From the IMG/VR virus record IMGVR_UViG_3300035670_000191, positions 1,540 to 65,539 of that record: a stretch of 64,000 bases of DNA. The stretch is one strand, 5' to 3'. Within the stretch, counting starts at the first letter, position 1. Each line of letters begins with the position of its first letter. Positions 6,624 to 45,971 of the stretch are shown in pieces. The stretch is from a virus. Lineage: Duplodnaviria; Caudoviricetes. Below the pieces are notes generated by a model, which saw only the letters and a list, made by a program, of their open reading frames with translations, was not told where the DNA came from and did no database searches. The translations under genes were made by a program, and so were the position numbers.

Positions 6624-7639
6624 CACTACAAACCCTATTCCCCTTCCACTTCTCCCCATCCACTATGTCAGACCTTTGGTCATGCGAGTTCGCTTTCTAC
6701 CGTAAGCACATCCAAAAACTCAGACCAATGGCCCAAACTGACAGTAACTTGTATGCAGGGGGGTTGTTTGCCTCAGCTTGTGAAATCACGCGCAAGGCTT
6801 TCTTCAACGATAAGGTTCCAGAAGATACGGCTATCCAACTTGGCAAAACCCACATTCTGGAAGCAGATTCAACCGAAGATGACTTGAAGTCTAACGAACG
6901 CCTTGCATACGTCTTTGAGAAATACTTTCAACACTACCCGGTTGACAAAGACCTTACACCTTGTGAACTGGAAGATGGGACATACGCCATCGAGTATTAC
7001 TTCGACCTAGGCTTGGGGATTCCACATCCTGACTTTCCAGACAAGGAACTGTCATTTGTTGGGCGGCTGGACTTTTTGGGTGAACGACGCGAGAGTGGCA
7101 AGACCGTCAGATACGTTGTGGACGATAAAACAACCAAAGCTGTGCGTCGTATTACTGGGACAAAAATCCCGGACGTGGCCACAGAGGAAAAAATAGAGTC
7201 TACCCGTGGTCAGTTCATGGCGTACATATACGCGGCCCGTGCAATCGGCGTCAAGGGCATAAACAAGGCACTGATTCGCCGGGTTCCGATCCTGGCAACG
7301 TATGAAAAGCCTTACGAAATCCCACTAACGTATACAGACCACGCCCTAGAATCATGGTTTACGTCCACCACTGATAAAATCATGGACGTACTGGAGCGGT
7401 ATAAATGGCTAAAAGCCAACGGTGAAGAAAATGCGATAAAAGCGTTCCGGCCTGTTTACAATGACGCCTGCAATAGCTATAATCGCCCCTGTACATACAA
7501 AGTAGGCTGCCTTCACCGAGAGGGCGAAGAAATCCTGGCACAAACATGTGAACAGACTGTGCATACTAAGGTTGGGGATACTTGGGTAAACCTGCCCCTA
7601 AAACAAGTTCTGAAAGACCTAAGAGGCACTCCGACGTAA
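6620..7639 (+). CDS. PD-(D/E)XK (RecB/Cas4-like) exonuclease
   Basis: SPS..CE N-terminus, IEY..FVGRLD..VVDDKTT, QFMAY, C-terminal cysteines (DAC..RPC..GC). Confidence 0.8.
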   Translation: MTLQTLFPFHFSPSTMSDLWSCEFAFYRKHIQKLRPMAQTDSNLYAGGLFASACEITRKAFFNDKVPEDTAIQLGKTHILEADSTEDDLKSNERLAYVFEKYFQHYPVDKDLTPCELEDGTYAIEYYFDLGLGIPHPDFPDKELSFVGRLDFLGERRESGKTVRYVVDDKTTKAVRRITGTKIPDVATEEKIESTRGQFMAYIYAARAIGVKGINKALIRRVPILATYEKPYEIPLTYTDHALESWFTSTTDKIMDVLERYKWLKANGEENAIKAFRPVYNDACNSYNRPCTYKVGCLHREGEEILAQTCEQTVHTKVGDTWVNLPLKQVLKDLRGTPT

Positions 7640-19573: not shown

Positions 19574-19654
19574 ATGGTGTTGTTAGATGTTTTTTGGATA
19601 TGTGTTACTGCTTTGGTCACGTTCTCACTGCTCTCGGCGGTTGTAGATGATTAG
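19574..19654 (+). CDS. 26-aa hydrophobic peptide
   Basis: GAGGTG RBS; MVLLDVFWICVTALVTFSLLSAVVDD; below the ORF-track cutoff. Confidence 0.5.
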   Translation: MVLLDVFWICVTALVTFSLLSAVVDD

Positions 19655-20408
19655 GGAGTCAAGCCACGGTAGACTTATACTTGGTAACTGTCTTGACGTG
19701 CTACCCACACTCCGTGATACGTCCGCCGGGATGGTTTTGTGTGATATGCCGTATGGGACGACAGCTTGTAAGTGGGATGTTGTTATTCCTCTTGCGCCAA
19801 TGTGGCGGGAAGTTATGAGGGTTGTGAAGCCAGGCGGTGCAATCGTGCTGACAGCCACACAACCTTTTTCAAGTGTACTTGTTATGAGTCAGCCGGACTT
19901 GTTTAAGTATGCTTGGTATTGGTGTAAGAATTTTAAGACCGGACATTTGAATGCTAAGAAGCAGCCAATGAGGAGCGTGGAAGATATACTTGTGTTTTGC
20001 GATGGGCAGACAGTGTATAATCCGCAAGGGGTTGTGCCGCATGGTAAGGTGAAAGACCGGGGAGTCGGGGCCACGACAAACCGGCCTTGTGGTAGTGTGT
20101 CTTTGCAAACCCACACCGGCTATCCACACCAGCAGTTGTTCTTTGACCGTGACTTACCCTCTGTTCATCCTACGCAAAAGCCTGTTGCACTCTTTGAGTA
20201 TCTTGTAAGGACTTACACCAATCCCGGTGATACAGTAGTTGACTTTTGTTCTGGGAGCGGAACTACTGCTTTGGCGTGCATTGCTTCTGGGCGGAACTAT
20301 GTTTGTGTTGAGAAAGACCCAGGGTTTTATGAAGTAGGGGTTACGCGGGTGGGTGAGGCTGAAGCCATGCAAGCCCTGTGCCAACCGAGCGAATCTCACG
20401 CGCCGTGA
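19647..20408 (+). CDS. beta-class DNA methyltransferase (N6A/N4C)
   Basis: CDMPYG, HPTQKP, VDFCSGSGTT. Confidence 0.92.
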   Translation: MIRESSHGRLILGNCLDVLPTLRDTSAGMVLCDMPYGTTACKWDVVIPLAPMWREVMRVVKPGGAIVLTATQPFSSVLVMSQPDLFKYAWYWCKNFKTGHLNAKKQPMRSVEDILVFCDGQTVYNPQGVVPHGKVKDRGVGATTNRPCGSVSLQTHTGYPHQQLFFDRDLPSVHPTQKPVALFEYLVRTYTNPGDTVVDFCSGSGTTALACIASGRNYVCVEKDPGFYEVGVTRVGEAEAMQALCQPSESHAP

Positions 20409-20412
20409 AAAT

Positions 20413-20607
20413 TTGACAAGTGTGGTTGGGTGTGGTAGGAACGGGTTGACCGCTCTGCTTACCACACTTTTGGCTGTTTGTCAAGAGCCTGTGCCGCCAT
20501 GCACACTTCCGTCGGAATGTCAAGCCGGAAGCTGGCTGTTGACAAAGGGCTTTTGGTGTGGTAGGGCAGGCCAAGCACTTGACACACACCCCAACATGTG
20601 GTAAACC
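20413..20607. promoter_or_regulatory. cluster of sigma70-like sites in both orientations
   Basis: TTGACA-N12-TGTGG-TA at 20413(+), 20484(-), 20539(+), 20579(+); weaker copy at 20523(-). Confidence 0.75.
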
Positions 20608-20632
20608 CCCCCCCCCCACCTGGCCCCCCCCC

Positions 20633-20732
20633 ACAAAATCCATGCCACCCCTCCCTCCCTCCCCCCGGCACGGCCCTTGCACCGTCAAAATCCATGCCAC
20701 CACGCCCGACCCGACCTGGCACGAACCTTGCA
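20633..20732. promoter_or_regulatory. cluster of four sigma54-like sites
   Basis: CGGCACGGCCCTTGCA 20666, TGGCACGAACCTTGCA 20717; TGGCATGGATTTTG twice on the minus strand. Confidence 0.7.
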
Positions 20733-20827
20733 AGTTACCCCGCCACCGATCCGCCACCATAGTAAAGTTCTCGATCAACCTCGTTCTAACTCCCAAAAAA
20801 GTCCAAAAAAGCACCAACTACCCCGGG

Positions 20828-20866
20828 GGCCGCCCACAGCCCCTATCACAAAGCGTGATAACCAGC
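20828..20866 (+). repeat. 39-bp direct repeat, copy 1
   Basis: 31/39 identical to 23467-23505; contains TATCAC-N5-GTGATA. Confidence 0.7.
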
Positions 20867-21049
20867 CCTGAAATTCCCCAGAAAATTCCGGGATAAAAAC
20901 CCTGTAAACCGCATGGTTTTTCCGTGTGGGCAACAAGCGACGCCCAGTGTTGCGCCCACGCAACAATTACAACGGACTGTGATAGGGGGTTGTTGCGCGG
21001 ACGCAACAGCCAAGCCTTCGGCTCCGGTCTCCGACTTTGCATGGCCTGC

Positions 21050-22330
21050 TGCCCAAAGGTTTGCCCAAGTCCGGGTCTGCCTCGCCAAAGGTTTGCCAAA
21101 GTTTTGGTGGAAGGTTTGTCCGAGTCTGCGGCTCCCGGCTCCGGGTGTCAAGTTTCCGACAGGCCCGACAAGCAGGGCCATGGGACTGGTCAGTCCAGAT
21201 CGCCCCACCCAAACATAAACTTGGACTAACTTCCAGGGCTTGGGAGACAAGAACTTAAGGCAAGCCCTGCAAGCCCTGCAAGCCCCAAGTTGAACTTAGT
21301 TGTTGCGGGCCAAGGGCCATGCCCATTCAACAAGTTGAAGTTGGGCCTGTGGCCAAGGGCCATACCCAGTGTCAATTTTCCGACACTTGGACAAGTGGGG
21401 TTTGCCCGGCTGCCCGGCTGCCCGTGTTGCGTGTTTGCAACAAGTGGGCCGGGGCCGAGGGCTTTCCAAGTGGAACTTATTGTTGCCACAGATGTACCTG
21501 CCCACAAGTGGACTTCCAGTTTCACTTGTGGGGCTTGCCAAGTTGGCAACAAATTGACCCCAAGTTGAACTTCCATGAACTTCCATGAACTTCCAGTTGT
21601 TTGCCACAAGTGAAAAGTTAGCCAAGCCTGTTTGCAACAAGGGTGGGGGGGACTTCAATAAGTTGAACCCGGTTGAACCCGGTTGAACCCGGTTGAACGG
21701 CCAAGCCTGTTGGCTTCAATAAGTTTGGTTCCCGCCGGGCAAGCCCTGCCTGCAACAAGTTGAGTCAATGTTGGCTGTGCCATGCAACAAGTTTGGCTCC
21801 CGCCAGTGGAACAATGTTCATGCAACAAGTTAACCCGGTTAACCCTGTTAAACAATGTTTGCCAGTGGAATCCACTGGATTCAACAAGTTGAACACTGTT
21901 CATGGCTTCTTTCAGAAGTTGGGGGGGGGGGGCAATGGGCAGACTTTCAGAAGTGAAACTTATGGGCCAAGGGCAAGGGCAAGCCTGGCCAATCCCGACC
22001 AAGCCTGCAACAAGTTGACCTTGTTGACCCCGGTTGACCCCGGTTGACCCGCCCCGTTCAGCCCTTGTTCAGGTTCATGCGACAGGTTGACAGGGTGACC
22101 TTGTGGCCATGCCCCGGTTGAACCCCGGTTGCCGACAAGCCCACAAGTGTCAGTTTCCCGACAGATGGGCGGGGCAAGCCCGCTGGCTGAACAGACTGAC
22201 TGTTGACAGGCCAAGCCAGGGGCAAGCCCAAAGGGATGGCAGGTGTCAAGTGGGCACAGGGCCAAGCACCGAGGCCAAGCCCTCACGCCCTCACGCTCAC
22301 ACAAGTCGCAGCCCACAGCCCACAGCCCGG
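21050..22330. repeat. non-coding field of short tandem repeats and palindromes
   Basis: CAAGCCCTG, AACTTCCATG, GTTGAACCCG, GTTGACCCCG tandems; TTCAACAAGTTGAA palindromes. Confidence 0.8.
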
Positions 22331-22452
22331 ATTGGCCGAAGGCCTGGCCACGGCCACTTTTTTGCGTGCGGGTGCATGTGTGGATTTATAGTTACCCTAG
22401 TTGTTCTAGTTCGGAGGCCGCCGACCCGCATTCTGCCTAGGGCCGAAGGCCA

Positions 22453-22518
22453 ATAGGTGGGATAAAACAACCAGATAGGGGGGAAAATCCAACCACATAG
22501 GTGGGAAAAAACAACCAC
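22453..22518 (+). repeat. three tandem 22-bp iterons (putative plasmid-type origin)
   Basis: ATAGGTGGGATAAAACAACCAG / ATAGGGGGGAAAATCCAACCAC / ATAGGTGGGAAAAAACAACCAC directly upstream of rep. Confidence 0.85.
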
Positions 22519-22585
22519 AAAAGGGTGAATGGCCCTTGCCCTGCTCACCCCTATCGGCTAGACTGGGGCTTTTTGAGGCAGAGCC

Positions 22586-23422
22586 GTGATCGTGAAAAAC
22601 GTCCCAAGCACCGACAGCAGAATGGTGTGCCCCTTGTTGGCGGGCAACACCCATGCAAGTTTGAGCAACATTTTGTTGAACGGAAGTTTCCCTTTTTCAA
22701 ACACTGAGGCTCTTGCCATTCTTTTGTCACTTGGAGGGGTTAATTCAACTCCGACTGACAACCCTGAAACAGATGCTTACAGGAAGTCAAGAGTTTATGC
22801 GTTCAGCACAAAAGACTATGCGGCTTTGAAAAACTTGGACGCAAGACAGACTTACAGGACTTTTCTGGCAGCAGCAGAGTCCATTTTCAAGAAACACTTT
22901 GTTGTTTTTCCGTCAAAGACAAATAGAGACAAAGTCTTGTGCCGTTGGGTTAGCGAAGTTCATGCTTATGCAGATGCAGACAGGATTGGGTTTGTTTACA
23001 GTCCGACGGTTTACGACTTTATCTTTAACTTGACAGGGGATTTTACGCGGCTAAACACACTTGTGTCTTTGACCATTGAGGGAAAACACCCAAGAAGATT
23101 GTTTATGCTGCTGGAACAACAGCGGTTCAGGGGTCTTGTGGGGCAGGCAGGGTGGGGAATTGAGGAACTTTATGAGTGCTTTGGGGCAACGGAGGCGGCC
23201 AGGGAAGCGAAGGTGTTTTTCAAGGACATTTTCAATCCGTCAGTTGCGGCTTTGAAGGAAGTTGGGTATCTGGATGAGTGCGAAGTTCGGAAGGTTAAGG
23301 CTGGTCGGAACATTTCGGGAGTTGAGTTGGACTTTGTTTTGGCGTCGCAGGAGAAGTTTGCCGAAGTTTACAGGGCAGACTTGGAGCATCTTGCGAAACT
23401 GAAGGCAAGGTGGGGAAGCTAA
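22586..23422 (+). CDS. plasmid-type replication initiator (Rep_3/RepB family)
   Basis: SN.LL....FS..E, FIFNL..DFT, RRLFMLL, IEEL..FG, FFKDIF.PSV, K.GR.I; adjacent iterons. Confidence 0.85.
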   Translation: MIVKNVPSTDSRMVCPLLAGNTHASLSNILLNGSFPFSNTEALAILLSLGGVNSTPTDNPETDAYRKSRVYAFSTKDYAALKNLDARQTYRTFLAAAESIFKKHFVVFPSKTNRDKVLCRWVSEVHAYADADRIGFVYSPTVYDFIFNLTGDFTRLNTLVSLTIEGKHPRRLFMLLEQQRFRGLVGQAGWGIEELYECFGATEAAREAKVFFKDIFNPSVAALKEVGYLDECEVRKVKAGRNISGVELDFVLASQEKFAEVYRADLEHLAKLKARWGS

Positions 23423-23466
23423 CAGCCCCACTCCCGCCTCAAAAAAGCGTCAAAAAACCGACACTA

Positions 23467-23505
23467 GGCCACCCACAGCCAAAATCACATTCCGTGATAC
23501 CCAGC
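23467..23505 (+). repeat. 39-bp direct repeat, copy 2
   Basis: matches 20828-20866; contains AATCAC-N5-GTGATA. Confidence 0.7.
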
Positions 23506-24058
23506 AAAGGGCCGGCAAAGGGACTGTTCAACCTTAGACAAAGCCAGAGGGCGGACAAACTTGTCCAAAGTTCTTGGCGAACAGACAGAGCTATACTCAG
23601 GTTGTGACAGAGCATCATGGCTAAAGTTCCATGAAATCACCGATAGACGACAGTCTACCACAGATTGCCGCCGGGGGGACACGTTTAGGCAACAAACTGG
23701 GAGGGGAGTGTCAAAAAAGTGACACCCAGTGAGGGCGGGGCCGGGCCGGGGCCAAGGACGGACGGGGCAAACCCGTGAAGTGGGAAGCGTGACAGACGGA
23801 CGGGGCAAGCCGGGGGGACAAGCCCCAAAGTCCAACTTAGTCAAAGATTGTGGCGTGGCGAGGCCCAACTTAGTCCAAGTTCGTGCCGAAAGAATGGTAG
23901 ACTTAGTTTGGGGCGAGCCGGGGCAGGCCAGGGTGTACAGGTTTTGTATGGGGGGGGGCTAGCCCTGGGCGGTTGTGTGGATTTTGGCCAAGTGTCAAGA
24001 TTTTGACGGTGGGGGGGGGGGGTGTCGGTGTCCGGGTGTGGGCGGTGGGGTTAGGGTG

Positions 24059-24087
24059 TTGACGGGGAGGAGGGGGTGTGGTAGAGT
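24059..24087 (+). promoter_or_regulatory. sigma70 promoter of the Lcl gene cluster
   Basis: TTGACG-N12-TGTGG-TAGAGT (17-bp spacer, -7 T present). Confidence 0.7.
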
Positions 24088-24153
24088 GTGTGGGAAGGGG
24101 GGGGTGGCCCTCGCCCCAAACAGCAATTCCAAGCACCACCTGGCGAGAGTATC

Positions 24154-24489
24154 ATGACAGACAAATTATACAGCGAGTTTTCTGAAGTCCTAGAAGAAGT
24201 TTTCCTGGAGAGGGAGAAAGTCCCCTTTGAAAAGTCTTCCGTCAATCCTTCTCATGTATGTGTAGCTGAAAGATTTTACAAGGAGGGGTTGAAAGCAGCC
24301 GCCATACAGCTAGGGTATAGCCGGTCTGACTTCTATTTTGCGTGGAAGGTAGCACAAGTAGCAATGTACGAACATAGACAAATGTACAGTTTGCTACTAG
24401 ACAGTGACCGGGCAGACACTATAGCCTACTTTTATGACATTCCGTCATGGAACATGGTTAAAGCAATGATGGATATTTTTACAGAGTAA
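24154..24489 (+). CDS. hypothetical protein
   Basis: ATG 24154 with GAGAG RBS, downstream of the promoter. Confidence 0.65.
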   Translation: MTDKLYSEFSEVLEEVFLEREKVPFEKSSVNPSHVCVAERFYKEGLKAAAIQLGYSRSDFYFAWKVAQVAMYEHRQMYSLLLDSDRADTIAYFYDIPSWNMVKAMMDIFTE

Positions 24490-24500
24490 CAGAAAGTGGA

Positions 24501-24884
24501 GTGAGAGCGGTGCAAAGCATGAGATACGAAACAGTGACAGAAACGGAAGTATTAGACCGAAAGACAGGTTTAATATGGATGAAAGACCCTAAGATTGACC
24601 TAAATTTTGAACAAGCTAAACAATATGCAGAGAGAATTTCTACTATAAATGGAAAATTTTGGAGAATCCCTACAATAGAGGAATTAGTTAGCTTAGTGGA
24701 CTATACATTATGCACACCTAACACACCGGCATCAACATTCCCTAATATGTTACAAAATATCTATTGGTCGTTTTCAAACTATTGGGGTGAGGTTGATAGA
24801 GTCTGGGTCGTAAATTTCTACGATGGTAAGATAATGGATTATGGCCTTGGTGATAATGTTGCATTAGTTCTCCTAGTTCGGTAA
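24501..24884 (+). CDS. Lcl C-terminal / DUF1566 domain protein
   Basis: D.KTGLIW, WRIPTIEEL, YWS, WVVNF.DG, LVR. Confidence 0.88.
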   Translation: MRAVQSMRYETVTETEVLDRKTGLIWMKDPKIDLNFEQAKQYAERISTINGKFWRIPTIEELVSLVDYTLCTPNTPASTFPNMLQNIYWSFSNYWGEVDRVWVVNFYDGKIMDYGLGDNVALVLLVR

Positions 24885-24890
24885 TAAATT

Positions 24891-25292
24891 ATGAATGTCG
24901 AGGTGCAGAGCATGAGATACGTTGAAGTTTCAGAAATACACGACACGCAAACAGGGCTAATTTGGCAAAAAGTATGTCAAGGCTCATTCACTATAGAAGA
25001 AGCCATAGCCTATGTTAAGTCTTTTAACAAAAGCACAGGCATGGAATGGAGAATTCCCACAATCGAGGAACTGAATAGGTTGGTTGACAGAAGCCAATTT
25101 GACCCGGCAACTAAATTCCCAGACAGCCCTAGTGGACTTTTCTGGTCATCTACAAAGTATCTTGGGAGGCCAGAAAGGGTATTCACCAATGAAAACAGCC
25201 ATAGTTATTGGTATATTAACTTCACTAATGGGGAGGTAAGTTTCAACTTAGGGGATTCTGAGTATTACCTAAGGTTAGTCCGTGATAAGTAA
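24891..25292 (+). CDS. Lcl C-terminal / DUF1566 domain protein
   Basis: DTQTGLIWQ, WRIPTIEEL, FWSST, INF.NG, LRLVR. Confidence 0.88.
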   Translation: MNVEVQSMRYVEVSEIHDTQTGLIWQKVCQGSFTIEEAIAYVKSFNKSTGMEWRIPTIEELNRLVDRSQFDPATKFPDSPSGLFWSSTKYLGRPERVFTNENSHSYWYINFTNGEVSFNLGDSEYYLRLVRDK

Positions 25293-25322
25293 TGCGGTTA
25301 AACAGAAACATAAGGCAGAAGC

Positions 25323-25721
25323 ATGAGTAAGTTAAAACAAATTGGTAGGGTAAAAGGTAAGGATTCCGCTAGCGATTCCATTGTATACTTGGAAAAACAC
25401 GCTAAGAGCAATGGGAAACTGTATTACGGTTTAGTTGTTGCAGAGACACCTGACGGAGTGATTAAGCCATATTTAATGGACGACATTATCGCGTCATTTG
25501 ACCTAGATGCACCGCTTATTGGAATGGAGGTTACTGTAGATAACCCACTTGAGTTTATTCAAAGTTGGCGAGACGTTTATAACTTAGAAAGCGTTATAAA
25601 GATGTACCGGAGAAACAACCCAAGCTCCTCTACGTTGCCGTTGTTACAAGCCGACCTGCTAGAGGCTTTAGATAAAATATGGTCTGAATTGACTAATTTG
25701 AAATACCGGAGAAGAATATGA
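25323..25721 (+). CDS. hypothetical protein
   Basis: 132 aa ORF overlapping the next start. Confidence 0.65.
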   Translation: MSKLKQIGRVKGKDSASDSIVYLEKHAKSNGKLYYGLVVAETPDGVIKPYLMDDIIASFDLDAPLIGMEVTVDNPLEFIQSWRDVYNLESVIKMYRRNNPSSSTLPLLQADLLEALDKIWSELTNLKYRRRI

Positions 25722-26086
25722 GATACGTTGAAAAAGCAGAATCAGAAATCCTTGATACCAAAACCAATTTGGTTTGGCAAAGGTCATACGAGACCATGAC
25801 ATTTGATGAGGCTCACGCTTATGCAAAGCGTGTTTCAGATGTTACAGGGCAACAATGGAGGGTGCCGACACTGGATGAATTGACGAGTCTGATTGACAGA
25901 TCAACAAGAAACCCCGCGTCGGCATTTCCTGGTATGCCTCCGGTATGGTTTTGGTCGTCGTCGCCGTACGTCGGCTATACCAGTTGCGTCTGGGGTGTCA
26001 ATTTCGGCGATGGCAGTGTCTACGGCAGCGGCAGCCGTGGCTACGGCTACGGCGCGGTTCGGTTGGTTCGTGATGCAATACCCTAA
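25718..26086 (+). CDS. Lcl/DUF1566 protein with a DGR-type variable region
   Basis: WRVPTLDEL, FWSSS, VRLVR; 3' codons almost all NNY. Confidence 0.88.
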   Translation: MRYVEKAESEILDTKTNLVWQRSYETMTFDEAHAYAKRVSDVTGQQWRVPTLDELTSLIDRSTRNPASAFPGMPPVWFWSSSPYVGYTSCVWGVNFGDGSVYGSGSRGYGYGAVRLVRDAIP

Positions 26087-45927: not shown

Positions 45928-45942
45928 GTCATAACCTTTGGG

Positions 45943-45971
45943 TTGCCTTGAGCCGACACCCGTGCTATAAT
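45943..45971 (+). promoter_or_regulatory. sigma70 promoter of the rightward tail operon
   Basis: TTGCCT-17-TATAAT with extended -10 TG. Confidence 0.7.

Follow-up and report, generated by a model that had tools for sequence, protein, structure and literature searches.

A bidirectional array of candidate extended -10 promoters without the -7 T at the border of a Rep3/iteron block in a siphovirus-type phage

The sites reported here most resemble extended -10 promoters, known in a TGn and a TRTG ('-16 region') form, the latter name being of Gram-positive origin. The A1-A3 promoters of phage T7 and the early promoters of phage T5 are sets of several strong host-type promoters lying close together in a phage genome; they keep the T at position -7 (-7T), are spaced by ~100 bp or more and are all directed into early genes. 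Pairs on opposite strands that share a short piece of DNA and exclude each other's occupancy are represented by pR/pL of coliphage 186, which are convergent with starts 62 bp apart, and by the symmetric bidirectional promoters of Warman et al., in which the -10 hexamers reportedly overlap and the starts are said to be 18 bp apart. Repeated sites also adjoin the Rep3_N initiator genes of Rep3-family plasmids, the iterons of which are whole-unit direct repeats (~19-22 bp).

Outside the Alphaproteobacteria, 90-99 % of promoters have a T at -7 (PMC7703639). Across three alphaproteobacteria, the -7T is present in only 30-43 % of promoters and absent from 57-70 %, the use of bases at -7 is roughly equal, and CarD activates the promoters that lack the T (PMC7703639; PMC8407463). 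Such promoters without -7T, which include rrn and rpsM of R. sphaeroides, are active in vivo (PMC7703639, PMC12976309). The alphaproteobacterial CarD promoters combine strong function with an intrinsic opening defect, for which an extended -10 compensates (PMC7703639, PMC8407463, PMC12976309). In the rrnB promoter of R. sphaeroides, substitutions creating an extended -10 or a -7T raised activity most and abolished CarD dependence (PMC7703639; PMC8407463). Promoters bound by CarD retain -12T and -11A, are without -7T and require negative supercoiling (PMC12976309).

The DNA analysed here, called the window, is a stretch of 64,000 nt (positions 1,540-65,539) of the 65.5-kb IMG/VR record IMGVR_UViG_3300035670_000191, a virus record classed as linear and 78 % complete by the CheckV estimate. 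The phage is of the siphovirus type, with lambda-like tail genes, a terminase, a portal and a capsid protease, and on the + strand it carries a replication module of helicases, ThyX, a family A DNA polymerase, a ligase and two N6/N4 DNA methylases. The module is followed by 2.2 kb with no convincing ORF and with dense short tandem and inverted repeats, then by a Rep3_N-type initiator gene (rep), a further 0.66 kb of non-coding DNA and a row of Lcl_C-domain genes from 24088 onwards. The GC content, ~47 % over the window, is 54-55 % between 20 and 24 kb. Rfam and tRNA scans of the window gave no match. The array and its surroundings comprise the following features (P1 to P6, promoter-like sites):

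19647..20408, + strand: N6/N4 DNA methylase gene (PF01555, E 6e-23), last gene of the replication module; stop codon at 20406-20408
20409..22585, no strand: ORF-poor, repeat-rich DNA of 54-55 % GC between the methylase gene and rep, with the array as its left edge
20413..20441, + strand: P1, TTGACA-N12-TGTGG-TAGGAA (TTGACA 20413-20418, TGTGG 20431-20435, TAGGAA 20436-20441), pointing right
20456..20484, - strand: P2, TTGACA-N12-TGTGG-TAAGCA (TTGACA 20484-20479, TAAGCA 20461-20456), pointing left
20495..20523, - strand: P5, partial copy TTGACA-N12-TGTGC-ATGGCG without TA (-35 at 20523-20518)
20539..20567, + strand: P3, TTGACA-N12-TGTGG-TAGGGC (TTGACA 20539-20544, TAGGGC 20562-20567), pointing right
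20579..20607, + strand: P4, TTGACA-N12-TGTGG-TAAACC (TTGACA 20579-20584, TAAACC 20602-20607)
20606..20850, + strand: C-rich, G-poor stretch with a GC skew of -0.45 to -0.57, starting with runs of C12 and C9
22453..22529, + strand: three 22-bp direct repeats, likely iterons, just upstream of rep (from a repeat listing)
22586..23422, + strand: Rep3_N-type replication initiator gene, rep (PF01051, E 5e-13; phrog_4402)
24059..24087, + strand: P6, TTGACG-N12-TGTGG-TAGAGT, which keeps -7T; right edge of the block, before the Lcl_C gene row

Direct reading confirmed the original prediction of four TTGACA-N12-TGTGG-TA sites with a 17-bp spacer and an extended -10, in positions, strands and hexamers: within 20413-20607, four exact sites are distributed over both strands. 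In each of P1-P4, the -35 matches TTGACA at 6/6 positions, the spacer is 17 bp, TG stands at -15/-14, and -12T and -11A (the TA) are kept; TGTGG immediately precedes this TA in P1-P4 and in P6. The statement that all four lack -7T holds as well, the -7 bases being A, A, C and C, albeit with a P of ~0.37 at 22 % T, which is not significant against an unconstrained position (n=4). The absence is unusual only against the 90-99 % T reported outside the Alphaproteobacteria (PMC7703639). The 12-nt spacer parts have no sequence in common, and the invariant bases are the sigma contacts, in agreement with the earlier view that only positions contacted by RNAP are shared. As the spacers are unrelated, P1-P4 are not recent duplicates, and recent duplication as their origin is ruled out. 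A fifth, weaker copy had also been proposed: its minus-strand TTGACA is present, but the lack of TA means that P5 shares only part of the motif, and it is doubtful as a genuine site.

The array is ordered P1> <P2 <P5 P3> P4>. P1 begins 4 nt past the methylase stop codon and stands face to face with P2; the two are interdigitated, with their -10 hexamers 14 bp apart, so that the predicted starts nearly coincide near 20448-20449 and joint occupancy is impossible. P5 is located 39 bp upstream of P2 on the same strand and P4 40 bp downstream of P3; between P5 and P3, arranged back to back, 15 bp separate the -35s. The predicted bubbles of the four sites are GC-rich (7, 8, 9 and 10 of 13), and the -10 of P4 runs directly into the C12 tract of the C-rich stretch, which is the first DNA that rightward transcripts from P3 and P4 would copy. 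No ORF is found for ~2 kb downstream of P1, P3 or P4; P2 and P5 face the 3' end of the methylase gene, into which they would transcribe antisense. Contigs of two freshwater DNA runs, ~94 % identical to the window, span most of the array (20295-20557 with 16 differences, 20256-20595 with 20 differences).

P1-P4 thus have the perfect -35, the 17-bp spacer, the TG at -15/-14 after TR, the -12T and the -11A of extended -10 promoters; unlike these, the last base of their hexamers is never T, and -10 is G or A instead of T. The same core followed by TATAAT-like hexamers is common in the phage back-to-back pairs described below, and it is also found in strong promoters of Thermotoga (PMC2412878). With the CarD- and supercoiling-dependent promoters, P1-P4 share the retention of -12T and -11A and the absence of -7T, but those promoters are cellular and 85 % of them have no extended -10, whereas the present sites belong to a phage, combine a consensus -35 with an extended -10, and are packed 39-40 bp apart or interdigitated. 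The likeness to the T7 and T5 early promoters lies in the proximity of several strong host-type sites. P1/P2 resemble the 186 and symmetric pairs in their mutually exclusive use of a short piece of DNA and differ from them in the 14 bp between the hexamers and in predicted starts at almost the same position. Rep3 iterons repeat as whole units in direct orientation, whereas P1-P4 share two short boxes with free spacers on both strands; their differing spacers rule them out as iterons. Two further candidates were rejected: no alternative -10 hexamer with A at 2 and T at 6 fits at 16-19 bp, which disposes of a shifted register, and TGTGGTA is incompatible with the DnaA box TGTGNAWAA.

Exact matches to the motif would be expected in the window ~0.002 times, and four were observed; no further exact copy of TTGACA-N12-TGTGGTA is present in the whole 65.5-kb record. 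Allowing up to two mismatches, eight matches were obtained against a shuffle mean of 2.37, and 0/100 shuffles reached eight. In the window as a whole, both strands included, TTGACA occurs 95 times against ~31 expected from length alone, and TGTGGTA 15 times against ~8.

Various other repeats are present in the block. Just upstream of rep, the 22-bp direct repeat unit ATAGGTGGGAnAAAACAACCAn occurs three times (22453-22529), ending 57 bp before the initiator gene; together with this gene, the repeats look like a plasmid-type iteron origin within a lytic-looking siphovirus. The C12 and C9 runs at the left edge of the block (20605-20632) are mirrored by G9 and G12 runs at its right edge (23944-24023), the arms of a perfect inverted repeat of 16 nt being separated by 3.4 kb; in public runs, contigs break at 20607/20609 and 24011. 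Repeats of 10 bp in tandem are GAACTTCCAT (three copies, 21569-21598), GTTGAACCCG (four copies, 21664-21702) and GTTGACCCCG (three copies, 22025-22056); a related contig is shorter by 20 nt at 21662 and by 10 nt at 22019, which shows that their copy number varies between strains. A palindromic 17-19-mer, GTGTCA-N5/6-(C/T)GACAC, is present in at least six copies on both sides of rep (21145, 21369, 22147, 23448, 23707 and 23992) and looks like a putative operator for a regulator. The motif ATCCATGCCAC(C)ACGCC(C)GACC occurs twice just to the right of the array (20634-20650 and 20688-20715) and again 18 kb away at 2092-2110, in the divergent control region 1865-2275. A 39-nt direct repeat, 79 % identical and containing ATCACA-N-CGTGATA, flanks rep (20828-20866 and 23467-23505). 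Directly downstream of the block, three paralogous small Lcl_C (DUF1566) genes lie in a row in 24501-26086, along with two similar-sized genes without an assigned family.

Sites in front of genes of the same phage are built differently. The claim that the array motif recurs at 24059-24087 with -7T stands as far as the hexamer is concerned (TAGAGT), whereas the -35 of this site, P6, is TTGACG and not TTGACA. A canonical, strong-looking TTGACA-N14-TGA-TACAAT lies on the minus strand (33002-32974), and TTGCCT-N17, ending in TGc and followed by TATAAT (45939-45967, + strand), heads the + strand genes from 46035. All three of these consensus-like sites keep -7T (3/3, each in front of genes), from which it follows that the host polymerase presumably prefers -7T. 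On the minus strand at 23652-23662, TGTGGTAGACT reads as an extended -10 with -7T and no good -35; it faces the 3' end of rep and is a possible antisense promoter.

The design is not confined to this phage. A tandem scan, which demanded two copies of TTGACA-N12-TGTGG 5-35 nt apart and left the TA and the -7 base free, returned 27 stretches from viral contigs, 95 from metagenome contigs and 19 from a 596-Gb genome collection, the latter against ~2 expected by chance, an expectation computed for this collection only. With TTGACA and TGTGG fixed, the scans cover exact boxes and not looser sites; families are megablast clusters, and the orientation of ORFs was taken from plain ORF lists. In the viral set, TA follows in 39/43 distinct sites although it was not demanded, and the -7 base of these 39 is a T four times, a G 23 times, an A nine times and a C three times. 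Clustering of the 122 viral and metagenome loci gave 66 families, 29 of which are other kinds of repeats without TA; the 37 TA-type tandem families divide into 19 without any -7T (GC 0.32 to 0.60), 6 mixed ones and 12 that always have it.

Two further viral scans, in which the pair geometry was fixed, gave 15 back-to-back families of the full TTGACA-N12-TGTGGTA core and two face-to-face families. Fourteen of the back-to-back families keep -7T on both arms, mostly as TATAAT or TACAAT, so that always having -7T is a property of 14/15 back-to-back against 12/37 tandem families (Fisher P 1e-4 for all families, 2e-5 for viral ones only). One of the face-to-face families is a single locus that keeps -7T. 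The other comprises 25 loci with a fixed 19-nt centre (22 nt in P1/P2), and 0/7 of its distinct hexamers have -7T; the nearest ORF of at least 80 aa points away on the left at 22/22 loci and on the right at 15/19, which places this pair, face to face as P1/P2 are, between divergent gene blocks. The core motif normally continues into a canonical -10. Loss of -7T accompanies either tight packing of the sites, co-directional or interdigitated, or certain phage lineages, two factors that are not separable here.

Individual arrays differ in their setting. Three sites without -7T lie just upstream of a fourth with -7T in one contig (L061), and two precede one in another (L030), while L089 has ten sites, none with -7T, on the same strand as the adjacent small ORFs listed. 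The arrays of L024, L090, Microcystis phage Mic1 and the window are all located in DNA poor in ORFs and rich in repeats, and related arrays of other contigs are in some cases near contig ends. L024, a 93.8-kb viral record that has direct terminal repeats, closely parallels the window in architecture: at 1380-2300, five sites without -7T, two leftward and three rightward, are found within 170 bp, ~2.7 kb from the genome end in ORF-poor short-repeat DNA. None of the loci from the motif scans is similar to the window itself (blastn of 19600-24300; tblastn of window ORFs). Megablast of 19600-22600 against phages gave no match, nor did tblastn of the capsid against phages; the methylase gave eight loci (40-51 % identity), none with the motif, a search of viral contigs with the DNA polymerase gave no pattern match, and no relatives of the Rep3 protein were confirmed in viral, metagenome or genome contigs. 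A full-text literature search covering sources other than subscription journals found no account of phage arrays without -7T; its matches to the motif were primer noise and ordinary TGTGG-TATAAT promoters.

Copies of the design that lack -7T are also found before RNA genes. Co-directional sites with TATAAG/TATAAC are found upstream of 16S rRNA genes in L059 and L056, and L113 also has the motif before 16S rRNA; in the three-locus family of the latter, the hexamers are TATACT, TACAAT, TATAAG and TATAAC (given per family, not per locus). Co-directional sites also stand upstream of tRNA-Ile in L020 and of tRNA-Leu in L110 and L125. The tandem rRNA promoters of L059 (1501-1581) and L056 (827-879) are the same, with identical spacers, in MAG contigs labelled Endomicrobiaceae and Paceibacterota, and one of these bins may carry a wrong label.

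An array family shares 94 % identity with Microcystis phage Mic1 (L040, record positions 65221-79546). Its sites read TTGACA-N12-TGTG(G/A)-TAG, with hexamers such as TAGATG and TAGCTG, some of them within repeats of 57-58 bp, and none of the nine found shares its strand with the annotated small genes, those at 7565/7623, 9094, 9829, 12054 and 13549 facing the 3' ends of gp73, gp71, gp70, gp69 and gp67, respectively. The predicted promoters of these genes themselves keep -7T (PMC7156551), and in another Microcystis phage the promoter logos are of the TANNNT type (PMC5780444). Within Mic1, the array region overlaps the genes gp69-gp73 of the immediate-early cluster, the peak of which is at 0.5 h (PMC11237433); by the description in that report, the RNA library was not strand-specific, and it does not tell which strand was read. 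The accessible portions of the published Mic1 accounts make no mention of the array sites.

It is very probable, judging from the build and the recurrence of the sites, that P1-P4 are sites for RNA polymerase holoenzyme with the primary sigma factor. Two boxes at a fixed spacing, shared by phages of 28-61 % GC and present before rRNA genes, imply a universal reader, and this would be the primary-sigma holoenzyme; that the invariant positions are exactly those contacted by sigma and that TA follows in nearly all viral sites lends good support to this reading. The binding step of the earlier proposal, according to which holoenzyme may bind and fire poorly, therefore stands well, whereas its poor-firing step found no support. 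Against an equation of absent -7T with poor firing as a rule weigh the sites before 16S rRNA and tRNA genes, small phage ORFs and divergent gene blocks, as does the published record that CarD or supercoiling can make promoters without -7T productive and that the T can be substituted by an extended -10 (PMC7703639, PMC12976309). Taken with the literature, this placement is indirect evidence that such sites can fire.

Our preferred reading, which we hold with belief and doubt in about equal measure, is that P1-P4 are real primary-sigma promoters with strong recruitment, difficult opening and conditional firing in both directions at the border of the Rep3/iteron block. A perfect -35, an optimal 17-bp spacer and a TRTG-type extended -10, with only -12T and -11A kept of the hexamer, would let holoenzyme bind very well as a closed complex, while opening would be reluctant owing to the missing -7T and to the GC-rich region that has to be melted. 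Firing would then need help from negative supercoiling of freshly entered or replicating DNA, from a CarD-like host factor or from the extended -10 itself, and short-lived open complexes might allow closely packed sites to coexist. Located where the operon of replication genes meets the repeat-rich Rep3/iteron origin block and pointing both ways, the cluster could send untranslated C-rich transcripts from P1, P3 and P4 into the origin block, towards the iterons and rep, and antisense transcripts from P2, and perhaps P5, into the methylase operon. Such transcription may activate or control the origin block, and it may insulate the converging operon or control it in antisense. As the same design recurs in many unrelated phages, the array is probably a deliberate kind of conditional promoter and not an accident. 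A phage factor may yet be involved; no sigma region-2 domain (PF04542) was found in the 65.5-kb record, which is itself an estimated 78 % of the genome, no match to the CarD domain (PF02559) was obtained in the record at E values up to 0.1, and the 63 ORFs scanned contained no Pfam regulator family. By tail and terminase, the nearest relatives infect Proteobacteria, among them the beta and gamma classes, which lack CarD; this counts against the preferred reading.

Several observations count against these conditional promoters and speak for non-productive docking, in which holoenzyme would be bound tightly as a closed complex and rarely open. The orientation of the sites leaves no ordinary gene to be served, P1 and P2 are mutually exclusive and P3 and P4 just 40 bp apart, too close for simultaneous use, and -7T is absent from all four, over GC-rich bubbles, while gene-proximal sites of the same phage keep it. 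The Mic1 sites point in the same direction, being opposite to the annotated small genes, some facing gene 3' ends, in a phage whose predicted gene promoters keep -7T, and so do the series in L061 and L030, in which sites without -7T precede one that has it, and the far more frequent lack of -7T in tandem arrays than in back-to-back pairs. Such traps might serve to sequester host polymerase, might form a roadblock or insulator that stops read-through out of the replication operon and into the origin, or might be a local reservoir handing polymerase to true promoters. Elongating polymerases usually dislodge promoter-bound ones, which counts against a trap, and four sites per genome make a small sink unless the copy number is high. 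As the design is also found elsewhere before rRNA and tRNA genes, and upstream of small ORFs of phages, and as published promoters without -7T are active in vivo, we consider pure trapping an unlikely account of P1-P4.

That P1-P4 are ordinary strong promoters, the missing T being meaningless to a host polymerase indifferent to -7T such as that of an alphaproteobacterium, appears a rather poor prospect. An unconstrained -7 would give four sites without T 37 % of the time, the roughly equal use of bases at -7 in Alphaproteobacteria (PMC8407463, PMC7703639) would fit, and the widest matches of the tail protein include Rhizobium phages, as the terminase list includes phages of Rhodobacter and Wolbachia. 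Set against this, the best matches of the terminase are to phages of gamma- and betaproteobacteria. In tblastn, the terminase and tail proteins have 25-33 % identity to phages from several proteobacterial classes, an indecisive result as to the host, and a protein atlas search for the host returned viral clusters only. The other consensus-like sites of this phage all keep -7T, and the split between array sites and gene promoters is also seen in Mic1, the host of which is a cyanobacterium, with TANNNT in the logos of another Microcystis phage (PMC5780444).

Binding of another protein of the origin block (the Rep3 initiator, a partition protein or a phage regulator), with a coincidental or secondary likeness to promoters, is improbable: the cluster does edge a block full of short repeats and palindromes, its sites share seven contiguous invariant bases (TGTGGTA), a stricter demand than is usual for polymerase, and P1/P2 form a large imperfect palindrome, but the same blocks and spacing recur in unrelated phages and before rRNA genes, which indicates a reader that is universal rather than phage-specific, the orientation of the sites is variously direct, inverted and everted, their spacer sequence is free, unlike that of iterons, and the likely Rep iterons, the repeats at 22453-22529, are unlike the motif.

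Returning to promoters of conditional firing, it is conceivable, albeit speculative, that the arrays form a distinct class of cis-element in many unrelated phages: packed sites for host polymerase that combine TGTGGTAR with a perfect -35 and a 17-bp spacer, systematically avoid -7T and would be built for closed-complex binding over efficient opening, the -7T contrast with back-to-back pairs then reflecting function and not host lineage. Members of such a class would tend to lie in ORF-poor, repeat-rich DNA, some facing gene 3' ends. They might serve as landing pads, sinks, insulators or promoters gated by supercoiling or a host factor, and would either way mark origin or early-control regions.

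In conclusion, the design is not peculiar to this phage. The array suggests that the Rep3/iteron block of this phage is under bidirectional control by host polymerase. Promoter finders and phage annotation assume TAnnnT, as a consequence of which such sites are missed or scored as weak. If the arrays are indeed a regular phage device, they would provide a sequence handle on early-control or origin regions in uncultured phages and a natural test set for the trade-off between recruitment and DNA opening in overlapping promoters. They would also extend the story of -7T, CarD and supercoiling from alphaproteobacterial chromosomes to phages, including phages of hosts that otherwise use -7T as a rule, an example being the cyanobacterium infected by Mic1.
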